From: an uncultured Bacteroidales bacterium
Lineage (GTDB): Bacteria > Bacteroidota > Bacteroidia > Bacteroidales > GCA-2748055
DNA: 64,000 bases
Direction of reading: 5' to 3'
Assembly (NCBI GenBank): GCA_963710385.1
Contig: CAVQAB010000002.1
Coordinates: 11,880 to 75,879 of the forward strand
Below, in pieces: positions 39,231 through 57,100 of the stretch. Positions within the stretch are counted from its first letter, which is position 1. Each line of letters starts with the position of its first letter. A program made the position numbers and the translations under genes. Under the pieces are notes generated by a model. That model searched no databases, was not told the origin of the DNA, and worked only from the letters and a program-made list of their open reading frames with translations.

Positions 39231-39287
39231 TTCCTCCTATACTTTAGTTAAACATCGGTTTCAATCGCTTCCAGTTGATTCTGCACT

Positions 39288-41190: not shown

Positions 41191-41250
41191 TATTTATCAT
41201 GATATATGCTTTTTCAAAAACCTCGCAAAGATACGAAAACTAGGCGGATC

Positions 41251-43426
41251 TTACAGGTTCTCAAGGATAAAATTGGTCATGCGTGTATAAAGGTGAATGG
41301 AAGTGTTCCCGCCTCTAATACCGTGGTTTTTATTGGGGTAGAACTGCATGTCAAATTGCTTTTCAGCCTGCACCAGCGCTTCTACGAAATCCATTGAATT
41401 CTGGTAATGTACATTGTCATCTGCACTTCCATGGATCAACAGGAACCTGCCCTGGAGGCCTCGGGCAAAGTGTATGGGTGAGTTTTGATCATAGCCCTCA
41501 GGATTCTCCTGTGGAGTGCGCATAAACCGCTCTGTATAGATCGTATCGTAGTATCTCCAGTTTGTAACGGGAGCTACTGCAATCCCCATCTTATAAGTGC
41601 CCTTTCCTTTGGTCATACAGAGACTGGTCATGAATCCGCCATAACTCCAACCGAAGATTCCTATACGTTGCGCATCAATATAGTTTTGTGATCCGAACCA
41701 TTGTGCGGCTTCAACCTGGTCAATGGTTTCCAGTTTTCCAAGAGTCAGGTAGGTGGCTTTCCTGAATTCTTCTCCACGACCGTTGGTCCCCCTGTTGTCC
41801 ACGCACGCTATGATATAACCCTGCTGAACCAACATTTGGAACCAGGCTCCCCTGCGACCCCATGAATCGGTAACATTCTGTGACTCTGGTCCTCCATATA
41901 CGTAGATAAAAAGGGGATATACTTTATTTGGATCGAAATCATTGGGTTTGATCATCCATGCATTCAAATTCTGACCGCTTGCAGTAGGAACCGTAAGGAA
42001 TTCAGTTTTTGCATATCCATAATCAACAACATTACTCTGAAGTGCGGCATTTTCTTCAAGAACCCGGATCAGTTTCCCCTTCTGGTCGTGCAGGGTGATA
42101 AATGGAGGTGTGTTGGCCGATGAGTGGTTGAGAATATAATAGTTAAAGGTTGTGCTAAAATCGGCAGTGTTGGTTCCAGATTCTGTACTTAATTTCTTTT
42201 TCCTGGAACCATCCAGTTTAATGGAATAGACATGCTTTTCAATGGAAGATTCTTCATAGGAGGTATAGTAGAGCCTCTGTTGTTTTTCATCATAACCAAG
42301 GAATGCATCAACATCATACTCACCTGAAGTGATGGGATTTATCTTTCCGGTGTTGAAGTTGTAGTGGTAAAAGTGGAAATATCCCTCCTTTTCACTATTT
42401 AATGATGAAGCTTTCCCCATCTTGCAGGTAGGTACTGGTATTGTCTGATGCTTCTGAAATATATGAATCGTTCTTCTCGGAATAAACCACTGTTGAAGTT
42501 CCTGAAACAGCATGGGCATGTAATATATCCAGGCGGTTCTGTCTCCGGTTCAAGCGCATGATGCTCAGCACTTCCGGATCGCTGGTCCATTTAATTCTTG
42601 GGATGTATTGGTCCTGCTCTTCACCAATATCCATGGATGTGGCTTTGCCCGACGCAAGGTCATAGACATGGATGGTGACCACCGAATTCAACTCACCTGC
42701 TTTGGGATACTTAAACTTATAACTGGATGGATAAAGGTCACCGAACAGGGTCATATGAAACTCCTGGACATTTCGTTCATCAAAGCGGTAAAATGCAATT
42801 TTATTACCATCTGGTGACCAGCAATAAGCCTGCGAAAATCCGAACTCCTCTTCATATACCCAGTCAGGCGAACCGTTGATGATCTTATTTTTCACTCCAT
42901 CGAATGTGATCTGCATTTCCTCATCCTTAGTAAGATCTCTGACAAACAGGTTGTTATTTCGCACAAAAGCCACACGGTCTCCCCGGGGTGAAAAGGTCCC
43001 AAGTTGTTGCTTTCCTTTACTGGAGACAGGAATCAACTCCCCTGTGTCCATATCATATACGTAATACGATGCCAGATAGGAGTGGCGATAAATCTGTTCA
43101 TGCCCGGTCTCCAAAAGGACCTTATCCTCCGAAGTATTGAAACTATATCCGCTGAACTGATTAATCTCCGGGAAATCTGCAGCATCAAACAGTGTTTCGA
43201 CAATCTCACCTGTTCGGTAACTGTATTTATTAATGCGGGTTTTTTCCTGAACAGTATAGTGTACTCCATCATTCATCGAGTTTAGTCCTTCCAGTACATT
43301 GGCTGTGAATTTCTCCGCATGGTAAATGTCACTAAGGGTGATGGTGGAAGTGGACTGACCAGATAGCGATGGGGTCAATGCTATCAACAGAAGTAGTGGA
43401 TAAATTTTTTGGGATAAGCTGTTCAT
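41251..43426 (-). pseudogene. Dipeptidyl-peptidase IV (S9B family), one frameshift near 42400
   Basis: The N-terminal beta-propeller ORF is 42395-43426 and has a signal peptide. The C-terminal catalytic ORF is 41251-42519 with 'GIFGWSYGGFMTS' and 'HGSADDNVHYQNS'. Confidence 0.88.
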
Positions 43427-43541
43427 GAATCAAGAATTTGTTTATGTTGCCAAAGGAAGAAAAAACCCTGATTATATGCAATTTAAAAGTTTGGCATGCT
43501 ATTTGAATTTTCTATTGTAAATAACTAAAAAACCAATTGCC

Positions 43542-44278
43542 ATGAAACGTTTACTTATCATATTACCAAGCCTGCTCCTGGCCCTGGCAGGTTGCTACAG
43601 AGAACCTTACGCCGATGCATTTATATCTCCCAGCCCCGCTTATGTTGGGGAGGACATCCATTTTACCAATACCTCCTCGAATACCGATTATGTGGAGTGG
43701 GATATGGGTGACGGTACAAGCGCATCAGCTTTCAATGTGAGCCATTTTTACTATGATCCCGGATCTTACCATGTTAATTTGAGTGCATATGGACGCAATG
43801 GTGATGTCAGTGTTGCATCATTTGTTGTGGATGTCATTGGCTCAGAATTAGAGATTGTTGTGAGGGAGGTCCTCGATGAATATTATGTTGAAGGAGCCAG
43901 TGTTATCCTCTACACCAATTCTGGATGACTGGGCTCAATTTTGAGAATCCGGTGGCTGAAGAACAGTTTACAAACCAGTACGGTGAATGTTATTTCTCCA
44001 ACCTGAGCTACCAGACTTACTTTGTGGATGTGTGGGAAGCCAGTCATGATAACTGGGCCATGGGAGAAGAAGATCCCGGGTTATGGATCGAAACACAAGA
44101 ATTACCTGGTGGATGGGACCACACGTTCATCGCTTACGTTGACTACTACGAATCTACAACCAAGAAGGCTGCAACAGTGGCAAGGCCTGCTACAAGAGAG
44201 CTGAGAGCTCCATTGAAAAACAGAGGGGAAGAGAGGCCTATGAAGGATAATAAATTCAGTATCAAAAAAGAGAAATAA
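43542..44278 (+). pseudogene. PKD-domain lipoprotein, one frameshift near 43925
   Basis: Lipobox 'LLALAGC' and a PKD-like 'FTNTSSNTDYVEWDMGDGTSASAFNVSHFYYDPGSYHVNLSA'. The second half is ORF 43925-44278. Confidence 0.65.
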
Positions 44279-44320
44279 TTAGCAACCTACAAATCAATAT
44301 AAAAAATTAATATATTTGCA

Positions 44321-44352
44321 GCCCTGGAAGCCCTCGCGTTTCCAGGGCTTTT
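44321..44352 (+). terminator. Intrinsic terminator after the PKD lipoprotein gene
   Basis: GCCCTGGAA / TTCCAGGGC 9-bp stem with a 10-nt loop, then TTTT. Confidence 0.7.
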
Positions 44353-44358
44353 AGCTTG

Positions 44359-44509
44359 GCTCAATTTTGGCAGGCCGACCGTTAAGAAAATGTCCGGTGG
44401 ACATTTTTAGGGAGGAGCCAGCCAGAGGGTAGGCCAATTCCGCCATCCATTGTTTGGGATGAATATTTCGGTTTTGGCAATAAGTTCTTTAATAAGTTAT
44501 AACAATATT
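44359..44509 (+). repeat. tRNA-Leu-associated structured repeat, copy A
   Basis: The core 'GGCCGACCGTTAAGAAAATGTCCGGTGGACATTTTTAGGGAGGAGCCAGCC' is identical to copy B. It also contains 'AGGCCAATTCCGCCATCC'. The period to copy B is 150 nt. Confidence 0.85.
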
Positions 44510-44663
44510 GCCCAGATGGCAGGGCCGACCGTTAAGAAAATGTCCGGTGGACATTTTTAGGGAGGAGCCAGCCTGCAGGGCAGGCCAATTCCGCCATCCA
44601 ATGATTGGGATGAATATTTCGGATTTGGCGAAAGAGTTCTTTAATAAGTTAGTACATCTAAAT
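44510..44663 (+). repeat. tRNA-Leu-associated structured repeat, copy B, abutting tRNA-Leu(CAG)
   Basis: It starts with GCCCAGATGGC, which equals nt 1-11 of the following tRNA. It contains GGCCAATTCCGCCATC, whose reverse complement includes tRNA nt 6-19. Confidence 0.85.
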
Positions 44664-44750
44664 GCCCAGATGGCGGAATTGGTAGACGCGCTAGTTTCAG
44701 GGACTAGTATACGCAAGTATGTGCAGGTTCGAGTCCTGTTCTGGGCACCA
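44664..44750 (+). tRNA. tRNA-Leu (anticodon CAG), CCA encoded
   Basis: Manual fold:
- Acceptor stem GCCCAGA/TCTGGGC.
- Anticodon stem CTAGT/ACTAG with loop TTCAGGG; the anticodon is at 44698-44700.
- Long variable arm.
- T-arm GCAGG-TTCGAGT-CCTGT.
- 3' end ACCA. Confidence 0.93.
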
Positions 44751-44760
44751 GTCAATTTAA

Positions 44761-44801
44761 AAGCCTTTGTGATTTAATAGATTACAGAGGCTTACTTTTT
44801 T
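44761..44801 (+). terminator. Intrinsic terminator after tRNA-Leu(CAG)
   Basis: A 13-bp stem AAGCCTTTGTGAT / ATTACAGAGGCTT (two G-U pairs) with a 7-nt loop, followed by ACTTTTTT. Confidence 0.75.
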
Positions 44802-45030
44802 GGGGATAATCCAATGCTTAACCCTGAAATCTGTAAAAATTTATAAATTGATACTTCTATCTTTAATGCTATAAAGGACACATCAGGACCTTCCAGTTTC
44901 AATTCGAATTGATGAATGAAATTCATGAAAAAATAAATTCCTGATAGTTCATCATCAGAAAAACTTAATTTCATGTCCTGTGTTATGAATTCAAGTGGAT
45001 CAATGATCGATGTGAAGAAATGATTCAATA

Positions 45031-48000
45031 ATGAAAAAGGTTTTTTTATTTGGGATGTTGATTACTGTGGTGGTTGAAATTTACGCTCAGGAACGCATAC
45101 TTTCCACCCAGTCAGTCCAGCAAAGAAGGCAGGTGATAAGTATACTGCCGCCCGAGAAGGATAAAGAGTTCGCAGAAGCTTTCGCCCGTCGGAATAATCT
45201 TCCGGTAAGAATGAATTACAAGAATGGCACCGTTCTTGAAATCAGGAGAATTACAGAAAACGGTCTTCCACTCTATTATAAAACTCTATAATTTAAACGC
45301 AGCTAAGACACTGTCTACCAATGAAGTATGGGGTGGAGGTGCGCTTGGGTTGGACCTTTCAGGCGCCGGTATTGTTGTGGGTGTATGGGATGGTGGGGGA
45401 ATTCTTACTACACACAAGGAATTCGAAGGTAGGGCCAGGATGATCGATGGGGATAATGATCCTGACAGTCATGCGACACATGTGGCTGGAACCATTGGAG
45501 CAGCCGGTAATGAAACCAGTGCAAGAGGCATGGCAAATAAGAGCACCCTTGAAGGATATAATTGGGATAACGATAATGCAGAGATGAGCATTGCGGCACA
45601 ACAGGGATTGCTTATTTCGAACCACTCCTATGGGTATGCTCAGGGCTGGGAATACAATTATGACAAAGATCGTTGGGAATGGTGGGGAGATGAGAGCGTG
45701 AGCGAAACTGAGGACTATAAATTTGGATTCTATGGGGAAGATGCGAGGGCATGGGATGATATTGCCTATAGTAATCCCCGATATCTGATCGTTAACTCTG
45801 CCGGCAATGACAGAGGAGATGGACCTGCACAGGGAGCCAATCACTTCGTATTTTCAAACAACTCCTGGTCACCCAGTACAACCGTCAGGGATCTGGACGG
45901 AGGGATTGGTGGTTTTGATTGTCTCGGAAGCCAATCTACAGCAAAAAATATACTCACTGTTGGAGCAGTTGATGATATTCCCGGGGGTTATACAAACAAT
46001 AGTGACGTAGATTTGGCTTCTTTTTCAGCGTTTGGTCCCACAGATGATGGCAGAATTAAACCTGATATTGTGGGGAACGGGATCAATCTCTACTCAACGA
46101 ATTCAGAAAATGACACCAGCTACATTTACAATTCAGGTACATCCATGTCAAGTCCCAATATAGCAGGATCACTGGCTTTGTTGCAAGAGCACTATCGCAA
46201 AATAAAAGGAAGGTTCATGTACGCTTCATCTCTTAAGGCTATTGTAATACACACTGCAGATGAAGCAGGAAACCCGGGGCCGGATTATAAATATGGATGG
46301 GGGCTCATGAATACGGCAAAGGCAGCCAGATTGATTTCAGAGGCCGAAGGTGATGGTATCGAATACGATACACTATCAAACAATGAGTTAATAAAATCCT
46401 CTCTGTTCAGTACAGGTGAGGAATCCATTAAAGTGACCATAGTTTGGGCGGACCCTCCAGGGGAATCCTCCGAAGCACAGCTGGATCCAACCAGCAGGAA
46501 ACTAGTAAATGATCTGGATATCAGGTTAACAAGACTGATTGATGGAATGGAGTTCAAACCATATATTTTGAATCCTGTAAATCCCAATAAACCAGCCGAG
46601 TCAGGAGACAACCAGCGTGATAATGTGGAACAGATATACATAAATTCTCCTGTGAAGGGTTTCTATGAAATATCGATTTCACATAAAGCATCGCTTACAG
46701 GAAATGAACAACCGTATTGCATCATCGTATCCGGATTAAGTAAGGACTTTATAGCCAGTGGATTCATCGAGAAAACAGAAAATAATGGGGATATCATTCT
46801 CTCTTCGGCCGATATATATATTAATGACATGGAGGTTGAATGGCTCATCAATCCTGAGAATGAACAGCCGGTGTCGCTTTCTTTTGATTTTTTTGATACG
46901 GAACTGGATAATGATGTTTTATCGGTATATGACGGGGATAGTGATTTGGCTCCACTTATCGGCAGGTTCAGTGGATCTTTACCTGATTCAGATACCCTGA
47001 TACGTTCCACAGGTGGGGAATTGTTTATTACATTCAAGTCGAATGAGAGTGTTAACCGGCATGGGATTTCTCGGTAAATACTGTACGGTTGCACCGGAGG
47101 GTAACTATTCTATAATTGGTGAATCCTTTCCCTGTGAATTGTCAGTAGAGACCTTTTTTGCCATTGGACAGGAAGGTGCAAGTTATAGCTGGGCATCGGA
47201 CCAGGCATGGCAATGGACAGGAAAATCAGCCAACGGAATCGACCTGCAGATAGGTGAAATACAGGATAAGCTCCGAATGACCCCAATGAACAGGTGCGGC
47301 AATGGAGTTGAATCGACATTGGATATCATTCCACTTCAAAGTGTACCTGAACTCAACACATTTGAGGGTGATATCATGCCCTGTGCGCATCTCCCCACCA
47401 TGTTAACTGTAAATGAACATCCGGGTGTAAGCTATGAATGGGAGCTGCCTACCGATTGGCTTGGCAACAGCGAATCGGAAACATTAAATTATATACCTTC
47501 GAACACTGAAGGTGATATTATAGTAACTGCGCGCAATGCGTGTGGTGTGAGCAATCCGTTATTAATAGAACTTTCCGTGCTGGATATCCCTGATTTTGAA
47601 AGTATTCAAACGGAACAAGTCCCTCCCTGTGAATTCAGTATTCAAGAGTTCTTTGTGGATTCCAGACCGGGATATAACTACTACTGGGAGGCTCAGAATG
47701 ACTGGGAGATTCTTGGGGACACCCTATCAGATACAATTCTTGTGAGTGTAGGTGCATCAACGAATTTCCTATTTGTTACTGCCGAAAACAAATGTGGATC
47801 AAGGACTTCTAACAGGCTATTTTTAACAGCTTCTACACCGCCAGAACCATTGTTGAAGGAATCACGGACCTCCTATGGCTATCCCGAGTTAGAAGTCTCC
47901 AATTCTTCCGATTATTCACTGGTACGCTGGTATCTGAATGGTATTCCCTTGCAGGGTGATGCAAGCTTAAATAGAAGCCTTGTTGCAAACAGGAATGGAA

Positions 48001-48296
48001 CATATTCGGTGGAAGGTATTAATAACGAGGGCTGCAGTAAGCTGTCGGATAGAAGTATTCAAATTGATAACAGGAAATTTGACTTCCTGGCTTACAGGAT
48101 CAATGAAACCGCTGTGGTTGTAGAAAATTCCACATCTGCAGCAGCTGTAATCAATATTGTTTCCTTATCGGGAAAGGTCGCCTACGCTGGAGAGCTGAGT
48201 CCAGGATACAATGAAATCGGCTTTTCTGCGACTGGATTGTATATGATACAGATCAATCAGAATGGTGTAAGAAGCTCATTGAAAACGCTTTTCTAA
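45031..48296 (+). pseudogene. Subtilisin-like S8 serine protease with a CUB-like domain and a T9SS C-terminal sorting domain, 2 frameshifts near 45285 and 47050
   Basis: Signal peptide present. The catalytic triad motifs are 'GVWDGG', 'HATHVAGT' and 'GTSMSSP'. The CUB-like segment is 'FDFFDTELDNDVLSVYDGDSDLAPLIGRFSG...ELFITFKSNESV'. The C-terminal beta-sandwich tail is 'GLYMIQINQNGVRSSLKTLF'. Confidence 0.85.
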
Positions 48297-48334
48297 GCTA
48301 ATCTACCAGGGTGTCGTAATATTCAATCCTCAGT

Positions 48335-49138
48335 TCAACGCAACTCCATGGTTAAATATGTCTCATCAATGACCCCGGCCTCTCCTGATACGCGCAGGTT
48401 CAGGCTTGAAATACTCTTGAAACACTTTGAAAAGGAGGCATCCTGCAGTGATTCGATATAGAAATCACCAAATTCTTCATCTGTGAATTGATATTGAGAT
48501 GGCACATGACACATTATATTTGTAGTATCCGATGAATCAAAAACAATTTTAAACTCTCCTGACCAATAATCAGATACAATGATTGTATCACCTCCATTCG
48601 GATTGGCAATTGTCGTTAATTCATAATCGGGATAGCGTCCGTCATATATGGAAGTTTCACTGGCAGTCCATTTTCCAACCAGCTCTTCGATATCATAATT
48701 GCATATTAACTGATTCATGTAAATGGTGTAAGCCGAATCGAAAATAGAAACCACATCTCCGGTAAGACCAACGATCAACGTGTCTTTTCTGCCAACCAGA
48801 TTATCATAACTTCCAATCAGGGAAAATTTTGCGGTCAATTCCCCAGCCGGTATAGTTACTGAGGAGGGCAAATAATACTGGTCTCCATGAATCCCTGTGG
48901 AATAAAGGATCTCAAGCCCGGCAGTTATCTCAGTTGACTGGACAATTGGTATTCCCACGTGGATATCATAGGGACTATTGTTATCATCAACTTGATATTT
49001 GCCGGAAGTTCCCTCGATAAAACTGATAAAAAGCGGTCCGTCGTAAATGACTGGTTCAACTTCCCCACAGCTGTTTATAATGATCACTGATAACAATATC
49101 CAGAATATATTTATAGTTCTCTTCATGATCAATTGCAT
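48335..49138 (-). CDS. Lipoprotein encoded downstream of SusD (accessory surface protein of the locus, function unknown)
   Basis: Lipobox 'IIINSC'. It is immediately 3' of the SusD-like gene. I cannot name a confident family. Confidence 0.55.
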   Translation of the reverse strand: MQLIMKRTINIFWILLSVIIINSCGEVEPVIYDGPLFISFIEGTSGKYQVDDNNSPYDIHVGIPIVQSTEITAGLEILYSTGIHGDQYYLPSSVTIPAGELTAKFSLIGSYDNLVGRKDTLIVGLTGDVVSIFDSAYTIYMNQLICNYDIEELVGKWTASETSIYDGRYPDYELTTIANPNGGDTIIVSDYWSGEFKIVFDSSDTTNIMCHVPSQYQFTDEEFGDFYIESLQDASFSKCFKSISSLNLRVSGEAGVIDETYLTMELR

Positions 49139-49145
49139 TTATTCA

Positions 49146-50621
49146 TTAATAGCCAGGATTTGGTGTAATATTCTCATTGGCCTGGATTTCAGATTCCGGA
49201 ATGGGCCAGACCCACCTCAGATTGTCTGGACCAAGTTGCAGTTCACTCTGGCTTGGACCTGGATTTGTAATGGTACCTTCAACAGGGTGGGATACTGGTA
49301 CCCGCTGAAAACCCAATCCCTTCCTTTTCAGATCCCAATAATAGTGTCCTTCAAAACAAAGTTCCCTGATACGTTCTTCCCAGATGGCATCCTTAAGTGC
49401 TTGTCCGGTCAGATTCTCGTTGGTATGGTTAACAATCCTTGCTGATCTAAGGGTATTATAGTCGGTCAGTGCAAGAGAATACTGTTCCAGCTCAGCAAAA
49501 GCCTCTGACCTGATGAGATACATCTCAGAAAGCCTGAAAACTTTGTACATATTGGCATTGGTGGTAATATCGCTCTCATAGAAAAGCGGATTGCCCGGAT
49601 ACTTCCATACCAGGGGCCAGGACCAGCCATGATCAGTAGACTCTGTCTTTAAGGCAATGTCTGCCCTGATATCATCTGAATCGAACAGGTTGATAATCCA
49701 TTCTGCCGGAATATAGTCTGCATTAGGAAGACCCTGCGAATTGTTATAGTAATTGTAACCTATGTAACGACCATCGAAGTCTCTTCTTGTGAGGCCAATC
49801 TTGAAAATGATCTCGTTTCCCAGGTCATTCAGGAAAAGGTCTGCATAGGTTGCCGAATCCCTGGCCAGGCCGTATGCTTGATTATCAATCACTTGGGTGG
49901 CATGGGAGATGGCATCATCATAATTGCCCATATATAGGCTGACCCTGGCCATAAAAGCCTCTGCAGCGCCCGGTGTCAGAAATACACTTGCCGCGTCAGC
50001 ATCACCGTTCCCTGAGAGGAGTCCCAATGCAGTTTCTGCTTCGTCCATGATAAAAGTGTAGACCTCCTCAATGGTATTTCTTTCCGGCTCAGCCACTTCA
50101 AAATGCTCCACAATGGGAACTCCAAGATCTGTTAATGGATTTGATTGGAGATAAGCCTTGGCAAACGCTTTTACCAGATCGAAATGGGCAATGGCCCTCG
50201 CCAGCCTGGCTTCCCCCTCGACCTGATCCAAAGAAGCCTGATCTGCATCGTCGATATCAGCAAGTACATCAATAATATTACTGGCTCTCACAATTACCTT
50301 ATACATGACATCCCAGGCTGCAGTGATCTCCCCGTTATCAGCAAGGAACGACCATTTGTAAAATTCTCCAAGCTGATTGGAATATCCAATCACGGATTGC
50401 AGTTCGTCGGTTAGCACATCTGCATGGACTACAAAATACCGTCCATAATAGGCGGTGGATTTGAACCCGGAATAGACCCCATTCAAAGCTACAATCGCAT
50501 CATCGAAAGACTTTATGGCCTGGTCCGTAATTACAGAATCGGCGGGATTTTTTACAAGAAATTCCTCACAGGAAGTTAATGTGATGCTTGCCAGGGTAAT
50601 ATATAGTAGTACTTTTTTCAT
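49146..50621 (-). CDS. SusD/RagB family nutrient-binding outer-membrane lipoprotein
   Basis: Lipobox 'ITLTSC' and TPR-like helical N-terminal region sequence typical of SusD. It sits directly downstream of the SusC-like gene. Confidence 0.88.
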   Translation of the reverse strand: MKKVLLYITLASITLTSCEEFLVKNPADSVITDQAIKSFDDAIVALNGVYSGFKSTAYYGRYFVVHADVLTDELQSVIGYSNQLGEFYKWSFLADNGEITAAWDVMYKVIVRASNIIDVLADIDDADQASLDQVEGEARLARAIAHFDLVKAFAKAYLQSNPLTDLGVPIVEHFEVAEPERNTIEEVYTFIMDEAETALGLLSGNGDADAASVFLTPGAAEAFMARVSLYMGNYDDAISHATQVIDNQAYGLARDSATYADLFLNDLGNEIIFKIGLTRRDFDGRYIGYNYYNNSQGLPNADYIPAEWIINLFDSDDIRADIALKTESTDHGWSWPLVWKYPGNPLFYESDITTNANMYKVFRLSEMYLIRSEAFAELEQYSLALTDYNTLRSARIVNHTNENLTGQALKDAIWEERIRELCFEGHYYWDLKRKGLGFQRVPVSHPVEGTITNPGPSQSELQLGPDNLRWVWPIPESEIQANENITPNPGY

Positions 50622-50642
50622 TTTACTTTCAGATTTATTGAT

Positions 50643-53559
50643 TTAAAAACCTGCATCTATCCCGATTGTAAAGGTTCTCACATGAGGATATTGTCCCAGT
50701 TCATAAGCGGCATCATACTCTGGATCAAATCCCAGATATTGTGTCCATGTCAGCAGGTTCTGTCCCTGGGCATATACCCGGAATGACCTGAATATCCGTG
50801 TCATTTGAACCCATTTTTGAGGAAGTGTATAAGAAGCAGTCAGATTTTTCAGGCGCATGAAAGATGCATCTTCCAGCAACCTGGTATCAAAATAGTTATT
50901 GAAATCCGCTTTAGGGATATCAGTCACATCTCCCGGTTCCTGCCAGGCATTCAGCATGCTTGTTGACTGGCCGAATGCACCAAAAAGTCCGTTGGATTCT
51001 ATAAAAAACCTCGTATTATTTAGCATATGTCTGCCATATACCCATGAAAAGAAAGCAGAAACTGAAAAACCACGGTAAGAGGCAGTTCCCGTAAAACCAC
51101 CCTGCCAGGGAGCCACCCAGCTTTTATTCACAAATTGTGCATTACTTACCAGGAATTTATTGGTCGGATTTCCTGATTCACCCAACCAGAGTCGCTCTCC
51201 GTTTGCAGCGTTAACTCCAATGATACTCCACCATTTTCCAGGAGCCATATGGTCTTCCCACCGCATGAATCCAATCTGAATCTGGGGTGGGGGGTACCTC
51301 TTCCTTCCCATCATACAACTCAATGATTTCATTGTGGTTGTAAGCCACATTGGCATCTATATTTATTCTGAGATTCCACCGGTTGAGGATCTCCATGTTG
51401 GTGGTGACTTCGATACCTTTGTTTAACATTTTGCCTATATTATCCCAGCCTGCTGAAAAACCTGAGGTATAGGAGTAAGGTACTTCCGATAGCATGTCTG
51501 TGGTCAGTTTATGGTAAACTTCAATAATGAAACCATATTTATTTGCCAGCTGAAAATCAAGTGCCAGGCTGGATAACCTGACCTTTTCCCAAGTAAGTTC
51601 AGGATTTCCCGGGGAGGATGGAGAACTGGCATTCAAGTCATAGTAGGTGCCCCCAAAACCATAAAGTTGCAGATGGTTATAGTTGCCTATGTTATAATTA
51701 CCGGCCGTTCCGATGCTTCCTCTCAGCTTTAGCCTGGAAAGAATCTTCACACCGGATATAAATGGTTCCTTGCGAACATCCCACTGTGCTCCAACTGACC
51801 AGAAATTTGCCCAACGGTTATCTATCCCAAACCTTGAGGAGCCATCCCGGCGGAAACTACCATCCAGAAAATACTTCTTATCGAAATCATAACTTGCATT
51901 TCCAAAGAATGAAAGGACTGTGTATTCCGAGGTATTTCCAGACCAGGAAATTCCAGGTGTGGCTGTAGTAGATAGTACTTTAACAATGTCATTGGGCAGG
52001 GTGTACCCTTCGGTTTCGAAGAATTCGCTTTTAAATCCGATGGATTCTTCTCCTGCGTAGCCACCTATACTGTGTTTACCAAAATTTTGTGAATATGAAA
52101 GAAGGTTCGTGTTAGTCAGTCGAAAACTCCTTTGGAAAAATCTGTAGACCTCGCCACTATTCAGGGCTCCCCAGGCAGATTTTGGATGCAGATACCCATA
52201 ATTCACAAAATCGGAAAAGTCCCCTCCAAGCGTGGATCTGAAAGTCAACCCATCCAGAATCGTGTACTCCCCATATACATTACCAACAATCTTAAGATTG
52301 TCATTTTTCTGGTCATTCAGGTCCAGCTGCTCCAGGGGATTTTCAAACATTAGCCCGTCTTCTGTGGAGGTATAGGATCCATCATCTTTATAGGGTGCCA
52401 CATATGGATTTTCCAGGTAAGCCCTGAATGTCAGATTATAGACGTTGTTAGTCGCCAGTACAGGATTCTGAGCCTGTTCAAACCCGGCAGTTATATAGGT
52501 GCCGAACCTCATCCTGTCCGAGGCCCTGTGGTCAATGTTGATACGGGCAGTATATCTTTTCAAGTCAGACCGGTATTGAATACCATCCTGAGATAAATAT
52601 CCGCCTGTCACATAAAAAGCGGTTCTTTCATTGCCACCCCTGAAGGAGAGCTCATGACTGTTCATAGGAGCATTCCTAAAAAGCTCATTCTTCCAATTTG
52701 TATTGATCTGTCTCAGATCCGGCAGTTCGGGATCATTCTCATCCCTGATTCCAAGAGAAATCTCGTAATCCAGTTTCTGATTAGTATCCATGATATCAAA
52801 CCGGTCCGATGAAATAACCGATCCTCCCAACTTGGTGCGGTAGGTAATTTCAGTCTGCTGATTATTTTTTCCCCGTTTCGTTGTAATAATGATTACCCCA
52901 TTGGCCCCTTTTGATCCGTAAATGGATGTTGCGGAGGCATCCTTCAAAACGCTGATATTCTCTATATCATAGGCATTCAGGGCGGAAAAATCTCCTCCTG
53001 TGATCTGAACTCCGTCCATGATGTAGAGCGGACTGGTACCTGCATTCAGGGAACTGATACCCCTGATCCTCACGGTAGCACTAGCACCTGGAGCGCCGGA
53101 ATTTGTTAGCACTTGCATTCCCGCTACCTGTCCCTGGAGTGCTGCATCAAAACTGGCAACCGGGATCTGACCGATCCGGTCTGAACTTATAGTCGTAACT
53201 GATCCTGTAATGTTGCCCTTCTGCTTGGTTCCATAACCCACTACAACCACTTCATCAAGTTCTTCCCTGCTTTGAACCATAACCAGATCAATTACCTCCT
53301 GAGTGCCTAACTCTATCTCTTCAGTTTGCAAACCAACGAAAGTAAATCTTAAAATGTTGATGGAATCTGGCAGGGTCAGGGAATACCTGCCATCAAAATC
53401 GGTTATTGTCCCGATTGAGGTGCCTGCCGCAATCACACTAACACCAAGTAATGGCATATTATCCTCACCCGATATCACAACTCCGGTGAAGGTTCTATTC
53501 TGGGCGAATAGGCCTGCAAATAACAGCGTAAGGGGAATTATTAATATTAGCTTTTTCAT
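50643..53559 (-). pseudogene. SusC/RagA family TonB-linked outer-membrane transporter, one frameshift near 51222
   Basis: The N-terminal carboxypeptidase-regulatory-like domain contains 'FTGVVISGEDNMPLLGVSVI'. The plug contains 'VVVVGYGT'. The barrel ends in 'IGIDAGF'. ORFs 51211-53559 and 50643-51356 join at '...GSWKMVEY/IGVNAANGE...'. Confidence 0.9.
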
Positions 53560-53805
53560 GCAGCATATAATTTCATTTGCATTGTTCTACAGAGCACTCA
53601 ATGGCGTTAAATGTAAATAATTGTTAGGATATGACAAACTACATCTATTTAAACCTGGGTTTTAGGGTTGAGTGTTTCTAACTTTCTTTCGTCTTCAAAC
53701 CTACATTCCTGTCGTGATCATCATTCTTAACAATAAGAATCGGGAGAAATATATTTTTTAATTCTTTTAATTTTATTTGATTCTTCCAAATTTCAGTTCA
53801 ATTAC

Positions 53806-53813
53806 TATCTTTG
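53806..53813 (+). promoter_or_regulatory. Candidate Bacteroidota -7 promoter box TATCTTTG upstream of repeat copy C and tRNA-Leu(GAG)
   Basis: Exact match to the TAnnTTTG consensus, with a TTTG at 53776-53779 in an AT-rich intergenic region. This is a motif match only. Confidence 0.3.
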
Positions 53814-53898
53814 CGGCAGTTGAGGAATGATAAGGTGATGGAGTAAAATAAATGCTAAGATTAACACGTTTAACTGACGTTCTTGTTAATTTAGAAAA

Positions 53899-54044
53899 GC
53901 CCAGGTGGCAGGGCCGACCGTTAAAGAAAATGTCCTGTGGACATTTTTAGGGAGGAGCCAGCCCAAGGGGGGCCTATTCCGCCACTCATTATATAGTAGG
54001 GTTGCTGAAATGGCACAGAGTTCTTAAAATGATGAATGTTTATT
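53899..54044 (+). repeat. tRNA-Leu-associated structured repeat, copy C, abutting tRNA-Leu(GAG)
   Basis: It starts with GCCCAGGTGGC, which equals nt 1-11 of the following tRNA. The core differs from copy B at 2 of about 51 positions. It contains GGCCTATTCCGCCAC, whose reverse complement includes tRNA nt 7-19. Confidence 0.85.
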
Positions 54045-54130
54045 GCCCAGGTGGCGGAATAGGTAGACGCGCTAGGTTGAGGGCCTAGTGACCGCTTTTG
54101 GTCGTGCAAGTTCGATTCTTGTCCTGGGCA
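54045..54130 (+). tRNA. tRNA-Leu (anticodon GAG), CCA not encoded
   Basis: Manual fold:
- Acceptor stem GCCCAGG/CCTGGGC.
- Anticodon stem CTAGG/CCTAG with loop TTGAGGG; the anticodon is at 54079-54081.
- Long variable arm.
- T-arm GCAAG-TTCGATT-CTTGT. Confidence 0.92.
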
Positions 54131-54183
54131 CAATGCAGCAATTAAGCTGCACACAATAATTTTAAAGCCAGAAGCAAAAGGTC

Positions 54184-57100
54184 CTAATCAATACTGGTGT
54201 CCTTAGGCTTAAATATTAAATCAGTGATCATTTTCAGAAGTATATTTTTCTTTATTGGTTTGGCAATATAGGCGTTACAGCCAGCCTCCAAAGATAGCTC
54301 TTCGTCTCCTTCCATAGCAAAAGCTGTTTGCGCAATAATGGGTACAGTTTTATCTATTTCCCTGATCCTCATGGAAATTTCATAACCGTTCATTCCAGGA
54401 AGTTTTATGTCCATCAGAATGAGATCAAATGCACCCTCTTTAAAATACATCTGCAATGTCTCCTCACTGTTTTTCGCCCAATCAACCGCTGCCCCGGTAG
54501 CCAATAAGTATTGGTAGATTAGTTTGAAATTGATTTCGTCGTCTTCCACTACCAGGATACGTTTTCCTGTCATAATATCCTTAAATTCATTATCTGTGCC
54601 TGATTTCTCGATCAATTTTCCATCATCTGCCTTCTCAAATGGCAGAACAAAATAAAATCTTGAGCCGATGCCTTCTTTTGAATCCACCTGGATCTCTCCG
54701 CCCAAAAGGGTTACAAGGTATCTGGAAAGTGTAAGTCCCAGACCTGTTCCTCCATAGAGTTTCAGCTTATCATCCTCAATTTTTCGAAAGAGGTCAAAAA
54801 TGACCTCCTTTTTATCTTCAGATAGTCCGATCCCGGTATCTTCCACGAAAAACTCAATACCCTCTTTTACTTCTTTGAATCCCAATGTTATCCTGCCTGC
54901 TTCAGTGAATTTAACCGCATTATCCAGTAATTTTGAAAGGACCTGCTTCAACCTTATCACGTCGGTTGTTATTTCAATATCATCACCGGAGGGGACTATT
55001 GCCTTAAGTTCAATCCCTTCTTTTTCAATATTCTTCAGTCTTTTCTGGTACGTCGATTCAAGTCTTAGTATCAATTCATTCAAATTGCACATTCCCTTTT
55101 TGATATTCAATGCATTGGTTTCCAGTTTAGAAATATCCAATATATCATCGATTAATCCCAGTAGTGATTCTGCATTGGTTGATACATTATCTACGAATTC
55201 ATTTCTCGTTTCATCTGTTAATTCTTCTTCTTTGAGTAAACTTGAAAATCCCACAATAGCGTTCATGGGCGTTCTGATCTCGTGCGACATATTTTGCAGA
55301 AAAGACGTTTTGAGTTGCTCCGATAGTTCAGCTTTTGTCTTTGCCTCGATCAAGATCTTTTCAACCTTTCTCCTCTCTTTTATTATTTCCTCTTTGACAA
55401 TGATCTCCTTTGACTTTTCATCCAGATTTTTCAGCAAACGTTCCTGTACCATTTTGTGGTTCCGCTCACGGATCCTTAAGATTGAAAAAAACATGATTCC
55501 AAGAATGACAGCAATCATTCCATAGAACCAGACAGACAGGTATACTGGTTTCTTAATTTTTATCCTAAAAGCTGAATCCTCTTCACTACGGATGTCGTTT
55601 TCGGTGAATGCCCTGATTTTGAATTCATATTCCCCGTGCGAAATCATATCATAAGTGATTCTGCGATTGAAAGTAGGGTCCGACCAGCTTTTATTATAGC
55701 CTTCTAGTTTGGTGGTATAGAATACCGATTCAGGATTGGTAAAACTGATGCCAATATAGTCCACCACAAGTTCGTATTGCCCGGCCTTTAGTAATACGGG
55801 CCCTTGCGTATGATCTATCGTATCTCCATCGATCATAACTGCACTAATTTGCAGCATTGGGGAGATTATTTCCCCTTTTGATTCGGTTGAGGTGTATTGA
55901 ATGAGGCCTTCTGATGTTCCAAACCAGATGTTACCAATGCGGTCTGTGTATACCGCATTTGTATAAAACTCTGCTGAACTTTTTACCCCGTCATGTCCGC
56001 TGAAAGTCTTAACAATATTTGTTTCAGGATCAATCAATGATATCCCGCCTGAATGACTTACAACAGGTTTCCCCTCCTTCGTTAGGGCCAGGCTGTAACA
56101 GAAATCTGATAATAATCCCGATTCCCTGGTGAAGTTTTTTATGGTATCGTCGGTGATCCACCAAACCCCATTTCCCATGGATCCAGCCCAGAGGGTTTCT
56201 TGAGCATCCATTCCGAAAGAAACTATCGAATTAAATGGTCCCATCCCACTGTTTTCCAATACAGCCACTTCATCATTCTTATTGATATAGTGTATCTCTT
56301 TGCACTGGGTTGCGATCAGGACCCTGCCTTCCGGATCAATATACATTTGTTTAATATTGTTATGAGGCAAACCCTCATTTGTGGTAAACCATTTCTTTAA
56401 TCCTGAATTTCTTTTAATCAGGCACAATCCTTTTTTTGTACTGATCCAGATATCTTCCCCTTGTCCTGTAATATGATTCACTGAATTGGCAAGCTCGTCC
56501 CGAGAGATGAAAACAGGATTAAAATTTAAGTTTCCCGCCCTGGCAACATATACTCCTGATTGTTCACATCCTATCCATATGCTTCCATCACCTGAAGTAT
56601 ATATGGTGTTCACCCTGTCACCCATCTGATGTTCCGGGAGCGGATAAGCCTTCACAACCGTGTCACCAAGACGATTTATTTCCAACAGGCGATCACCTGT
56701 TGCAGCCATCAAATTATCATCAAACCCTGCAATGGCATAGTTTTCAAGCGAGTATCCATCCGAATCATAACGGTAGAATTTGAGGTTGCTATCAACATAT
56801 TTCAATAATCCTTCTCCATACATTCCGATCCAGAGATTGCCTTCAAGATCCTCAAACATGGATTTTGCGTTCTCAGATATAAGTCCCCGGTCAGCCGATA
56901 TGCTGGCTATTAATTGATAACCATTCTCCTGGTTTGGCCTGAATTGAGTCAATCCATTTCCCATTGAGTTGACCCACAGGTCACCATTTCTGTCTGTTAA
57001 ACCTCCCTGAAGGTTGTCAAGCATTCCCTTTGGGTTCTCATCAATGGCAGAGAAAAGATATGCTCCAGAGATTCCTTCCGGGCTCAGTTGATATAAACCA

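Follow-up and report, generated by a model that had tools for sequence, protein, structure and literature searches.

A previously undescribed hairpin repeat of Bacteroidota whose inverted arm matches the adjacent tRNA-Leu gene

Two tRNA-Leu loci and their repeat units

The window, the whole 64-kb stretch of DNA that was analysed, contains tRNA-Leu(CAG), preceded by repeat copies A and B, and tRNA-Leu(GAG), preceded by copy C (Table 1). The description of copy C in an earlier note as a third copy of the element upstream of tRNA-Leu(GAG) holds, as its arms and core were re-found; a covariance model search of the 64-kb window returned these three copies only, with E-values of 1e-15 or lower. As that note had also stated, the two tRNAs differ over nt 1-24 at nt 7 (A/G) and nt 17 (T/A), and the arms of copy C carry the GAG versions: the direct arm has G7, and the inverted arm, through 13 nt of exact reverse complement to tRNA nt 7-19, includes the complements of both G7 and A17. 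Copies A and B bear the CAG-type inverted arm, with 14 nt of exact complement to nt 6-19. The argument that a simple 11-nt target-site duplication cannot account for the arms is likewise sound, the arm of copy C reaching tRNA nt 19.

Table 1. Coordinates in the window of the tRNA-Leu genes, the repeat units and the associated upstream features.
Feature	Coordinates	Strand	Remarks
Promoter-like TAnnTTTG box TATATTTG	44311-44318	+	Sole TAnnTTTG in the CAG locus; putative promoter
GC hairpin, then T-run	44322-44352	+	With the box, conserved tRNA-Leu operon head (44311-44352)
Copy A degenerate direct arm CTCAATTTTGG	44360-44370	+	Upstream of copy A core
Copy A core	44371-44432	+	62-nt hairpin module; model R1, 75.4 bits, E=1.8e-16
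Copy A inverted arm GCCAATTCCGCCATCC	44433-44448	+	14 nt, 100% complementary to tRNA-Leu(CAG) nt 6-19
Copy A spacer	44449-44509	+	Small hairpin, TTTGGC 'anti-arm', GTTCTT motif
Copy B direct arm X	44510-44520	+	Equals tRNA-Leu(CAG) nt 1-11
Copy B core	44521-44582	+	Model R1, 86.2 bits, E=3.8e-19
Copy B inverted arm	44584-44599	+	Complementary to tRNA-Leu(CAG) nt 6-19
Copy B 'anti-arm' CGGATTTGGC	44620-44629	+	Decayed direct copy of tRNA nt 11-19; can pair with arm
tRNA-Leu(CAG)	44664-44750	+	ARAGORN and Rfam
Promoter-like TAnnTTTG box TATCTTTG	53806-53813	+	93 nt 5' of copy C; putative promoter
Spacer S CGTTCTTGTTAATTTAGAAAA	53878-53898	+	Native inter-tRNA / pre-tRNA spacer type
Copy C, whole unit	53899-54044		Directly 5' of tRNA-Leu(GAG)
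Copy C direct arm X GCCCAGGTGGC	53899-53909	+	Equals tRNA-Leu(GAG) nt 1-11, with G7
Copy C core	53910-53970	+	Covariance model R1, 72.7 bits, E=8.1e-16
Copy C inverted arm GGCCTATTCCGCCAC	53971-53985	+	Complementary to tRNA-Leu(GAG) nt 7-19
Copy C spacer	53986-54044	+	GTTCTT motif; 59% identity to copy B spacer
tRNA-Leu(GAG)	54045-54131	+	ARAGORN and Rfam

In comparing the copies, a near-invariant core and a much more diverged 3' spacer had been noted from the sequence, and both observations are borne out: the cores of B and C are identical at 50/52 positions, differing by an additional A and by a G/T substitution in the apical loop, and their spacers at 38/64. The extra A in copy C could be an assembly indel, as several genes of the window look frameshifted relative to those of relatives. 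Exact-protein database look-ups for two window genes gave no match; the closest homologue of the neighbouring kinase is 61% identical. In copy C, the core has a 10-bp apical stem with a UGU loop, a GUUAA(A) bulge and a basal helix that contains tandem G.A pairs; a direct copy of tRNA nt ~6-19, now decayed, lies in the spacer at 54000-54014. Between copies A and B, identities are 51/51 in the core, 16/16 in the arm, 7/10 in the linker that separates core from arm and 52/64 in the spacer, amounting to 0/67 differences in core and arm versus 15/74 in linker and spacer. The direct arm of copy A is lost, matching at 4/11 positions. The anti-arm of copy B can pair with the arm at 9/10 positions as judged by eye.

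The box upstream of copy C is the sole TAnnTTTG motif in the GAG locus. The TAnnTTTG box resembles the published Bacteroidetes -7 promoter consensus, and by analogy the boxes at both loci may act as promoters. A TTAATATATTTGCA-plus-hairpin head recurs 5' of tRNA-Leu in loci L022, L059, L063, L071, L084, L155, L219 and L225. The spacer-S type is found before every unit and every tRNA; in L225, CACCA is followed by the parallel sequence CGTTCTTTAATAAG 3' of tRNA-Leu(GAG), and a GTTCT motif lies upstream of every unit. Since the units share the orientation of tRNA-Leu and follow a promoter-like box, they are probably transcribed into the precursor; with a single upstream TAnnTTTG box per locus and units inside operons, co-transcription with tRNA-Leu is plausible.

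The core and its dispersed family

The core, of about 62 nt, forms a long imperfect hairpin consisting of GG/CC pairing, a CCGACC/GGGAGG helix with tandem G.A pairs, a GUUAA bulge and an apical stem of 9-10 bp; it caps a longer stem, and each subfamily has basal arms of its own. Covariation is seen in the apical stem as double changes at 9/10 pairs (107 cells), which 0/500 shuffles match. Compensatory changes also occur in the basal helix of variant copies, where pair 9-43 changes from C-G to G-C and pair 10-42 from C-G to U-A, and in one core variant Watson-Crick pairs replace the G.A pairs. G.U pairs exceed A.C mismatches in the core (38 versus 9) and the tandem G.A pairs are likewise strand-specific; this pattern points to the sense strand as the folded one. 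The compensatory base changes support a strand-specific fold, and a hairpin of single-stranded DNA would leave an identical signal. Readings of the core as a K-turn, an integron attC site or an HDV-like fold were dismissed on sequence and geometry by inspection, not by formal tests. A small ORF starting from an SD-like GGAGG plus NTG was rejected on inspection, its frame and start not being kept between B and C or across subfamilies.

Approximately 136 core copies were found in 104 genome loci, nearly all of them from Bacteroidales or Cytophagales, with copy numbers per MAG of up to at least 15. Two cultured strains are among the carriers, and Lunatimonas salinarum KCTC 42988 and Cyclobacterium sp. 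SYSU L10401 have copies of the non-tRNA kind. All copies are intergenic (0/80 tested lie inside an ORF) and 59% are not near a tRNA; most are hairpin repeats unrelated to tRNAs and carrying other arms, the subfamilies including tRNA-Leu, REP1, REP2, GAAGAC and others. The initial framing as a tRNA-Leu element was too narrow, the core being present also at tRNA-Thr 5' ends, at tRNA-Glu and tRNA-Ser 3' ends and at non-tRNA sites. Copy C can be assigned with high confidence to the tRNA-Leu subfamily of a previously undescribed hairpin repeat widespread in Bacteroidota. The repeat is modular, occurring in versions with and without the core and as tandem modules, and its orientation relative to flanking genes is weakly biased (16 sense versus 9 antisense between co-directional gene pairs). 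In locus L064, two inverted copies flank ordinary metabolic genes.

For the interval 43800-54600, an Rfam search (cmscan, E-value mode, E up to 1) gave the two tRNAs and nothing else, and a full-text literature search with the core sequence, together with keyword searches, found no description. The core pattern had no match in viral contigs, nor did blastn against plasmid and phage collections yield any; an origin as a phage or plasmid att remnant was ruled out on this basis. Clustering of all ORFs of at least 120 aa within 8-kb windows of the 104 loci revealed no transposase, integrase or reverse transcriptase near the copies and no recurrent protein family adjoining them apart from syntenic housekeeping neighbours, namely a PKD protein, a 714-aa protein, a MutS-like protein and two-component kinases.

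Presence of the element is patchy. In an unbiased metagenome sample, 7/9 tRNA-Leu(GAG) genes of Bacteroidota type lack it on their 5' side, and the filled L084 site has an empty orthologue in L219, indicating that the element is dispensable. The CAG and GAG units within one genome have the same apical-stem variant, which differs between genomes; this indicates homogenisation or turnover at the DNA level. These features would suit a DNA-level mobile element, a possible if on balance doubtful alternative in which the core would be the mobile part of a non-autonomous element with arms templated from the target. A putative enzyme, or replication template switching, would insert the core at tRNA gene ends, and insertion would duplicate the outer gene fragment, invert the junction copy and leave the tRNA intact; re-insertion at the regenerated site would then build arrays in which cores are uniform per genome and arms are local, making concordance with the tRNA automatic. 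The dispersed, multi-copy and always intergenic family, the pair of filled and empty orthologous sites and the truncated and tandem cores seen in L008, L087 and L090 are all consistent with such an element. No mobility gene (transposase, recombinase or reverse transcriptase) recurs near the copies, however, and the single apical-stem variant of the tRNA-Leu(TAA) units in five genomes suggests vertical inheritance over a long time.

Layout at tRNA genes and the inverted arm

At tRNA-Leu, tRNA-Thr and tRNA-Glu sites the order is the same: an outer tRNA fragment, the core, an inverted copy of the junction and the intact tRNA. The copies associated with tRNA-Leu (37/37) and tRNA-Thr (2/2) are co-oriented with the tRNA and lie at its 5' end. 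The Glu and Ser copies (13/13) occupy the tRNA 3' end in the opposite orientation; at Glu sites the arm spans the junction, making the layout a mirror image of that at Leu and Thr. The tRNA-Ser sites agree with Glu in position and orientation, and the rule of an inverted arm fails there, since the segment after the core is a direct copy of the palindromic T-arm.

A unit in a tRNA operon begins with native pre-tRNA spacer and tRNA nt 1-11 (X). The core comes next, and after it the arm, which is tRNA nt ~2/6-19 in inverted copy; a small hairpin and a decayed direct copy of nt ~5-20 (the anti-arm) follow, and repeated spacer closes the unit before the next unit or the real tRNA. The anti-arm is the best local tRNA match at the same place in 13/24 units. 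Units form arrays of 1-4 and sit between the tRNAs of a single operon in L225, L022 and L100; arrays of up to four units would be odd for a regulator. Direct repeats at tRNA sites range from 11 nt to at least 120 nt and include locus-specific spacer, and none were found at REP-type copies. Mature tRNA was considered as the template for an X and arm ending at nt 1 and rejected, as the duplication continues in decayed form into the spacer at TAA loci and in arrays; it is also contradicted at 3'-end sites, where the duplication runs through the trailer.

Much of this layout is again what a mobile element might leave behind. Mirror-image layouts at the two ends of tRNA genes reflect the geometry of DNA and not of RNA, arrays are present with the distal copy A the most degenerate, and the direct, inverted and direct copies of the tRNA start resemble serial template-switching products. 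Against this, there is no target-site duplication of fixed length, the duplicated spacer and X being locus-specific in extent; a perfect core and arm between copies A and B, with a diverged linker and spacer, is not predicted by recent rebirth or by one conversion tract; and the anti-arm has been left uncorrected.

Tabulating the loci of relatives, a check proposed in the earlier note, showed that the inverted arm does follow the adjacent tRNA-Leu, with separate lineages showing double changes at nt 7, 16 and 17 (6 cells; 0/500 shuffles); tracking is seen for the CAG, GAG, TAA and CAA isoacceptors. When 24 distinct tRNA-Leu units are taken together, the helix between arm and tRNA is 91% paired. 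All 24 arms complement nt 11-17 exactly, even where the unit spacers are unalignable, and mismatches are confined to nt 6-8, 10 and 19; about one unit in three has a mismatch in the arm portion opposite nt 5-8. In locus L057 the arm agrees with the local tRNA at positions where X disagrees. The complementarity thus co-varies with the adjacent tRNA, as expected of a cis-antisense element. In the collected loci, the longest exact inverted match of tRNAs with a core is mostly 8-19 nt, while tRNAs without a core within 220 nt have inverted self-matches of mostly 9 nt or less, the few longer ones adjoining a neighbouring unit. A chance origin of the match between tRNA and arm is excluded. Repeat and tRNA would therefore be kept matched either by RNA pairing or by a DNA copying process.

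Another explanation, which we regard as unlikely, is that an old local duplication of the tRNA-Leu start trapped a repeat and that the pairing has no function, the selected tRNA being the template from which occasional gene conversion over short tracts, or template-switch correction of a quasi-palindrome, keeps the arm complementary. The units are plainly built of duplicated spacer and tRNA start, the arm is often mismatched opposite nt 5-8, many relatives do without the element, and partial-tRNA tandem repeats occur beside tRNA genes elsewhere, such as the 178-bp repeats of E. coli tyrT. The contrast between copies A and B, in which core and arm are free of the differences that linker and spacer show, speaks against neutrality, as do the exact nt 11-17 complement in otherwise diverged units and the appearance of the same architecture at Leu, Thr and Glu genes. 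The anti-arm has also decayed although its distance from the arm is shorter than that of the tRNA; templated correction, if efficient, would have repaired it, and passive templated copying is hard to reconcile with its decay.

The arrangement of arms around a structured core also resembles a guide RNA with a scaffold, a reading that seems distinctly improbable. The core would serve as a protein handle and the flanking X and arm as guides for a trans-encoded effector (a recombinase, nuclease or modification enzyme) sent to the tRNA gene or its D region, with other guides in other subfamilies. Such a class fits a strand-specific core whose variable flanks correspond to both strands of a target close by, with an overlap at the junction, the retention in copy A of an intact core and arm without X, and an order of direct guide, hairpin and inverted guide like that of the IS110 bridge RNA target-binding loop. 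However, no effector gene is linked, the supposed guide adjoins its own target, both arms simply pair together in REP-type subfamilies, the core is far shorter than known bridge or omega RNAs, and there is no Rfam or literature match. Were the core the scaffold of a new bacterial guide-RNA class, to which we give little credence, a recombinase or polymerase acting in trans might insert or renew units at the ends of tRNA genes, each time rebuilding the arms from the target, or the guide might direct modification or cleavage of the D region.

Proposed origin and role, and comparison with known systems

The best explanation, proposed tentatively and with less than even confidence, is that the repeat formed at the DNA level and that selection acts on its folded sense strand and its antisense arm, both of which probably function in the RNA precursor of tRNA-Leu. 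Both processes offered in the earlier note, selection for RNA pairing and templated copying of DNA, survive, each for a different feature: the DNA level accounts for the architecture and selection more probably for the core and arm, and it is the function of RNA pairing that we infer. The architecture must have arisen in the DNA itself; the layout may be the product of duplication or template switching at the end of a tRNA gene, with units subsequently multiplied into arrays. Purifying selection on the folded sense strand would then maintain core and arm, and is favoured over passive copying since these are conserved unevenly relative to linker and spacer.

In the precursor RNA, the arm would pair with tRNA nt 6-19, which covers the end of the acceptor stem, the D stem and the D loop, and X and the anti-arm, as mimics of the same tRNA region, could be its alternative partners. 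This may act as a cis-antisense hold or switch on the folding and 5' processing of pre-tRNA-Leu, and in that case any substitution in the tRNA D region would favour a corresponding one in the arm. Folding predictions for the leader joined to the tRNA place the arm against tRNA nt 6-19 and X against the 3' acceptor strand (z = -3.1 and -4.8). An RNA role of the pairing is purely what we infer from sequence, and a Leu-specific RNA function would leave unexplained the 59% of copies lying away from tRNAs and the Glu and Ser cores antisense to the tRNA. The weak orientation bias, the arrays, the apical-stem variants shared within a genome, the patchy presence and the mismatches opposite nt 5-8 likewise weigh against this reading.

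The repeat is of interest because its 62-nt module is conserved and structured, shows clear covariation, is missing from Rfam and has no description in the literature searched; to our knowledge, an architecture of terminal tRNA fragment, hairpin and inverted tRNA junction copy is known from no other bacterial repeat. The inverted junction copy and the tRNA next to it co-evolve. Should the pairing operate in RNA, this would be cis-antisense control of a tRNA's own maturation; if the copy is made at the DNA level, it would point to a novel target-templated insertion or repair process at tRNA genes.

Among known repeats, REP/BIME, RAYT-mobilised REPINs, enterobacterial ERIC, Correia of Neisseria and pneumococcal BOX elements are likewise short, non-coding, multi-copy, strictly intergenic imperfect palindromes, found in both orientations, modular and able to form long RNA or ssDNA hairpins; the core copies share their multi-copy, non-coding and intergenic character. 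REPINs and MITEs show the reverse of the present pattern, in which conservation lies at the apex and the basal arms change from subfamily to subfamily. There are no terminal inverted repeats conserved in all copies and no fixed-length target-site duplication, no linked RAYT or transposase was seen around the copies, and in some subfamilies the arms are derived from the adjacent tRNA. The halves of the core are loosely inverted, and no transposase-like ORF cluster recurs within the 8-kb windows.

Downstream of E. coli tyrT lie tandem 178-bp repeats (rtT RNA), each starting with the last nucleotides of tRNA-Tyr. These resemble the present units in being tandem within a tRNA operon, in combining a terminal tRNA fragment with spacer and in co-transcription with the tRNA, here predicted, but they have neither an inverted tRNA copy nor a conserved hairpin module shared with unrelated sites; the Rfam rtT model gave no match at either locus. 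Integrative elements also leave a direct repeat of a terminal tRNA fragment (attL/attR) flanking the insert, with the tRNA intact. Here, however, the interval from X to the tRNA is ~140 nt of non-coding DNA without an integrase, the duplicate includes variable spacer, there is an inverted junction copy, and Leu and Thr sites use the tRNA 5' end.

The target-binding loop of the IS110 bridge RNA consists of a direct target-like segment, a hairpin and a complementary segment. The IS110/IS1111 bridge (seek) RNA loop thus has the same segment order, with segments overlapping at the junction, but the present repeat is a single, smaller hairpin module without a donor loop, DEDD recombinase gene or other recurrent neighbouring gene, and its direct segment is continuous with the flanking DNA. 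The primer-binding sites of retroviruses and LTR retrotransposons similarly hold a short sequence exactly complementary to a host tRNA, there by recopying from the tRNA primer; here nt 6-19 and not the 3' end is matched, no reverse transcriptase is nearby and the polarity is reversed at Glu and Ser sites. Lastly, T-box and other cis-acting leader switches share a structured leader and mutually exclusive pairings involving tRNA sequence; unlike in these, there is no specifier or T-box sequence, the pairing involves the D region, and the target, if any, would be the tRNA's own precursor.

Units of the window and their surroundings

Each unit comprises a direct arm, X, which repeats tRNA nt 1-11, a hairpin core of about 62 nt, an arm that is an inverted tRNA copy, and a spacer; copies A and B lie upstream of tRNA-Leu(CAG) and copy C upstream of tRNA-Leu(GAG). 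Scanned with the core covariance model, the window yields these three copies and no others. In their first 24 nt the two tRNAs differ at nt 7 (A in CAG, G in GAG) and nt 17 (T and A, respectively). The earlier note had described copy C from the sequence alone, and segment identities, the covariance model and a comparison of self-matches all show that description to be correct: its arm complements G7 and A17, and copies A and B carry the CAG-type arm, an exact 14-nt complement of tRNA-Leu(CAG) nt 6-19. Copies B and C agree at 50/52 core positions, the differences being an additional A in C and, in the apical loop, a G/T change, and the spacer (38/64) is more diverged than the core, both as the note had it. 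Identity is 13/16 in the arm, where two of the differences face tRNA nt 7 and nt 17, 5/10 in the linker and 10/11 in X. The extra A in copy C may be an assembly error, as several window genes are frame-shifted relative to close homologues. Among the loci analysed, the longest exact inverted self-match is mostly 8-19 nt in tRNAs with a core. Where a tRNA has no core within 220 nt, such matches on either side of it are mostly at most 9 nt long, and the few that exceed this adjoin a neighbouring unit.

Positions of the tRNA-Leu genes, copy C and adjoining features in the window
Feature	Position	Remark
Split or frame-shifted ORF	39251-41261	
Split or frame-shifted ORF	41251-43426	
Split or frame-shifted ORF	43524-44275	
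Conserved operon head	44305-44352	TTAATATATTTGCA, then GC hairpin and T-run
tRNA-Leu(CAG)	44664-44750	one of two tRNA-Leu genes
Block between the tRNA-Leu genes	44751-53877	9.1 kb
Split or frame-shifted ORF	50643-53559	
Copy C direct arm X	53899-53909	tRNA nt 1-11 with G7
Copy C core	53910-53970	
Copy C arm, GGCCTATTCCGCCAC	53971-53985	exact reverse complement of tRNA-Leu(GAG) nt 7-19; 59-nt spacer follows
tRNA-Leu(GAG)	54045-54131	other tRNA-Leu gene

Each tRNA-Leu locus of the window has one TAnnTTTG box upstream of its units, a promoter-like motif that resembles the published Bacteroidetes -7 consensus. The highly conserved head of the operon, in which this box is followed directly by a GC hairpin and T-run, looks like a promoter and then a terminator-like hairpin, and recurs at eight loci from other genomes or metagenome contigs (L022, L059, L063, L071, L084, L155, L219 and L225). 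The hairpin of L219 lies 16 nt from the tRNA, which must therefore be read through it. Compared with intact homologues in related MAGs, several window genes are broken into ORFs that overlap or are frame-shifted, which suggests either assembly indel errors or a series of pseudogenes. At least six pieces, at 70-87% identity, correspond to a 714-aa protein and two to a 268-aa PKD protein; a DPPIV-like and a SusC-like gene are in two parts each. The tRNA-Leu gene pair of L225 and L226 is only 180 nt apart and has the same flanking genes as in the window (DPPIV and PKD on one side, a hybrid kinase on the other). The 9.1-kb block, whose products are an S8 peptidase carrying a CUB domain, a PKD-like and a hypothetical protein, SusD and a SusC-like protein, appears to have been inserted exactly between the tRNA-Leu(CAG) 3' end and the CGTTCTT spacer. 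Compared with L225, the window has its CAG and GAG genes in swapped order.

A widespread hairpin core

With one genome per species, 104 loci match the census pattern CCGACCGTTAA-N18-44-AGGGAGGAGCC, and a slightly looser pattern gives 136 core copies. The hosts are nearly all uncultured Bacteroidales or Bacteroidota, with a few Cytophagales; the latter include two cultured carriers, Lunatimonas salinarum KCTC 42988 (L081) and Cyclobacterium sp. SYSU L10401 (L099), whose copies include divergent variants, so experiments on the module are possible in isolates. The sole match outside Bacteroidota, on a contig labelled uncultured Ruminococcus sp. (L032), adjoins a tRNA-Met and is atypical in its 3' part; it may reflect a mis-binned contig or horizontal transfer. 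The core has no match in Rfam or in viral, plasmid and phage collections, and is a widespread, undescribed module. All copies tested are intergenic, with a weakly biased orientation relative to neighbouring genes, and no protein family recurs beside them apart from syntenic housekeeping genes. That the units specify guide RNAs whose scaffold serves an unlinked effector is, on our reading, quite improbable.

The consensus core folds into a long imperfect hairpin which, from base to tip, consists of GG/CC, CCGACC/GGGAGG with a tandem G.A/A.G pair, a 5-nt GUUAA bulge, and an apical stem of 9-10 bp with an NGU loop. Double compensatory changes occur in 9/10 apical pairs (107 cells; reached by 0/500 shuffles). 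The basal helix is fixed by the search pattern and hence invariant in the main set, and was tested on divergent copies that an HMM retrieved: a whole subfamily with CCGAGCG...AGCGA(A)GG has G-C instead of C-G at pair 9-43, L022 and L225, which read CCGACT...AAGGAGG, have U-A instead of C-G at pair 10-42, and one Lunatimonas copy has Watson-Crick pairs in place of the G.A pairs. The excess of G.U pairs over A.C mismatches (38 versus 9, the majority from one pair) and the strand-specific tandem G.A pairs indicate that the sense strand is the folded one. All this is consistent with a folded RNA; the identical signal would come from a single-stranded DNA hairpin.

No tRNA lies within 400 nt of 80/136 core copies, in which the core is the apex of a longer palindromic repeat, and the arms of that repeat distinguish the subfamilies. 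The REP1 subfamily is TCCCCTCC..GGAGGGG-TGGGGGTGGGTT, with coreless versions of its hairpin nearby, and REP2 is a palindrome of about 190 nt with satellite arrays of a GAAGACN heptamer on both sides and at least seven copies in one MAG. REP2-type loci are L019, L023, L024, L042, L085, L102 and L103 (MAG MFD10007.bin.2.59) and loci in related MAGs; an extra module, GAGCCTGCCCTGAGCGCAGCGAAG, is optional in the right arm, and coreless hairpins again occur nearby. Other non-tRNA copies have GAAGAC or GTAAAAG flanks. Cores are in tandem in L087 and truncated in L008, and L090 has a 15-nt array made of the core 5' end (positions 1650-1745: six tandem copies of AAAGGGCCGACCGTT, a complete core, then repeated 3' half-cores). 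Across genomes the apical-stem variant goes with the arm subfamily: ATCCCGCC with REP2 (3 genomes), ATTAGCC with REP1 (6 genomes) and ATGCTCC with tRNA-Leu(TAA/CAA) (5 genomes). One subfamily (L043, L062 and L098, the last with two copies separated by 4.4 kb) has as its left arm GTCAGGTTTCGAACC, which resembles a tRNA T-arm and 3' end in reverse complement, with no tRNA gene within 400 nt; tRNA-derived arms can thus occur away from tRNA genes.

Geometry, arm tracking and distribution at tRNA genes

All 37 copies at tRNA-Leu (CAG, GAG, TAA, CAA) and both copies at tRNA-Thr are upstream and co-oriented, and all 13 at tRNA-Glu or tRNA-Ser lie at the 3' end in opposite orientation. Read in core orientation, Leu, Thr and Glu sites have X (the gene's outer 11-18 nt), then the core, an inverted copy spanning the X|Y junction, a spacer and the intact gene. 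At Leu sites the junction is nt 11|12 and the arm spans -3/-9 to +7/+8; at Glu sites it spans 0/-4 to +13/+15. tRNA-Ser is the exception, its post-core segment being a direct copy of the palindromic T-arm. Between core and tRNA-Ser, L003, L028, L090 and L094 have a second small repeat family of GGGATTACC...GGTGATCCC hairpins, and in L028 more than 120 nt of tRNA-Ser trailer and 14 nt of tRNA are duplicated. In arrays, TAA loci and 3'-end sites the duplication runs past X for a further 25 to >120 nt of locus-specific spacer or trailer and is decayed near the junction. The closest syntenic relative that we found, L225, has a unit between tRNA-Leu(GAG) and tRNA-Leu(CAG) in one operon, preceded by the same CGTTCTTTA spacer that trails the upstream tRNA. 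The unit is thus a pseudo-cistron, a normal spacer and the first 11 nt of a tRNA with the remaining gene body replaced. About 35 nt before the next tRNA, the spacer also contains an anti-arm, which repeats tRNA nt ~5-20 in direct but decayed form and can pair with the arm (best local tRNA match at the same place in 13/24 units). The full pattern thus runs from direct copy and core through inverted copy and loop to a second direct copy, spacer and tRNA.

Arms track the adjacent tRNA-Leu in relatives, the check that the earlier note had proposed, across 39 units, 24 distinct ones of which were aligned. The complement of nt 9-19 is in nearly every arm of the 39, and that of nt 11-17 is exact in all 24. 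The arm follows A17 in copy C and all four L056 units, G16 in L022, C16 in L074 (with a G.U-compatible mismatch opposite U17), and the G7 and G5 variants in L022, L052, L057, L074 and copy C; in one L057 unit X has G7 and the tRNA A7, and the arm agrees with the tRNA. The arm-tRNA helix is 91% paired in the distinct units, with three pairs changed on both sides (6 cells; shuffle mean 1.0, reached by 0/500), and mismatches, one in about a third of units, occur only at nt 6-8, 10 and 19. That this concordance is a neutral by-product seems doubtful to us.

Conservation within units is uneven. Between A and B there are 0 differences over 67 nt of core and arm (51/51 and 16/16) and 15 over 74 nt of linker and spacer (7/10 and 52/64 identical); the diverged linker sits between core and arm, and X (4/11) is lost in copy A. 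This would not be expected from a single gene-conversion tract or a recent duplication, and would be expected from purifying selection on two separate segments. The decay of the anti-arm, which is nearer the arm than the tRNA is, points the same way, as hairpin-templated correction is evidently inefficient here. In six genomes CAG and GAG units share an apical-stem variant that differs between genomes, so some DNA-level homogenisation or turnover is also at work.

Metagenome contigs were also scanned for the tRNA-Leu(GAG) anticodon arm, independently of nt 1-19, giving at least 120 loci, and show the distribution to be patchy. Among the matches listed, cores are found only next to Bacteroidota-type tRNAs (starting GCCCAG), and nine such GAG genes have sufficient sequence upstream. 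A unit immediately precedes the GAG gene in two of them (L109, L130); two others have one upstream of the preceding CAG gene only (L155, L168), and the rest have none. The filled L084 site has an empty orthologue in L219, and the upstream sequence of both is the same: promoter-like box, hairpin and TGTTTTTTACATGTTG.

Candidate mechanisms and known systems

Beyond the family and fold, the geometric rule at tRNA ends, arm tracking, uneven conservation and patchiness observed here, the unit architecture was probably made at the DNA level, as one rule applies to tRNA 5' ends and, in rotated form, to tRNA-Glu 3' ends, and the direct, inverted and direct copies resemble products of serial template switching. 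The tRNA-Leu operon units, being co-oriented and downstream of the sole TAnnTTTG box per locus, are probably part of the precursor RNA, in which the arm could pair with tRNA nt 6-19 or, alternatively, with X or the anti-arm. In predicted folds of leader and tRNA, the arm pairs with nt 6-19 and X with the 3' acceptor strand (z = -3.1 and -4.8). Together these points lead us to favour, tentatively and at less than even confidence, the view that the concordance stems from a cis-antisense hold or switch acting on how pre-tRNA-Leu folds and is processed. Copies away from tRNAs, and those antisense to tRNA-Glu and tRNA-Ser, are left unexplained by this RNA model. A purely DNA-level mobile element templated by its target is a somewhat less probable alternative; it lacks an enzyme and does not predict the A/B conservation pattern.

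We class the element among bacterial intergenic palindromic repeats, with an unusual relation to tRNAs. It is like REP, BIME, REPIN, BOX, ERIC and Correia repeats in copy number, location and modularity, but differs from them in its conserved apex and variable arms. Membership among MITEs was rejected, there being no common terminal repeats and no fixed target duplication. The tyrT 178-bp repeats are alike as tandem operon spacers carrying a tRNA fragment, and integrase att duplications in leaving the tRNA intact, whereas the element has neither their content nor an integrase. By analogy, not membership, the order of direct segment, hairpin and inverted segment resembles that in the target-binding loop of IS110 bridge RNAs, and the tracking of tRNAs resembles that by retroviral primer-binding sites.
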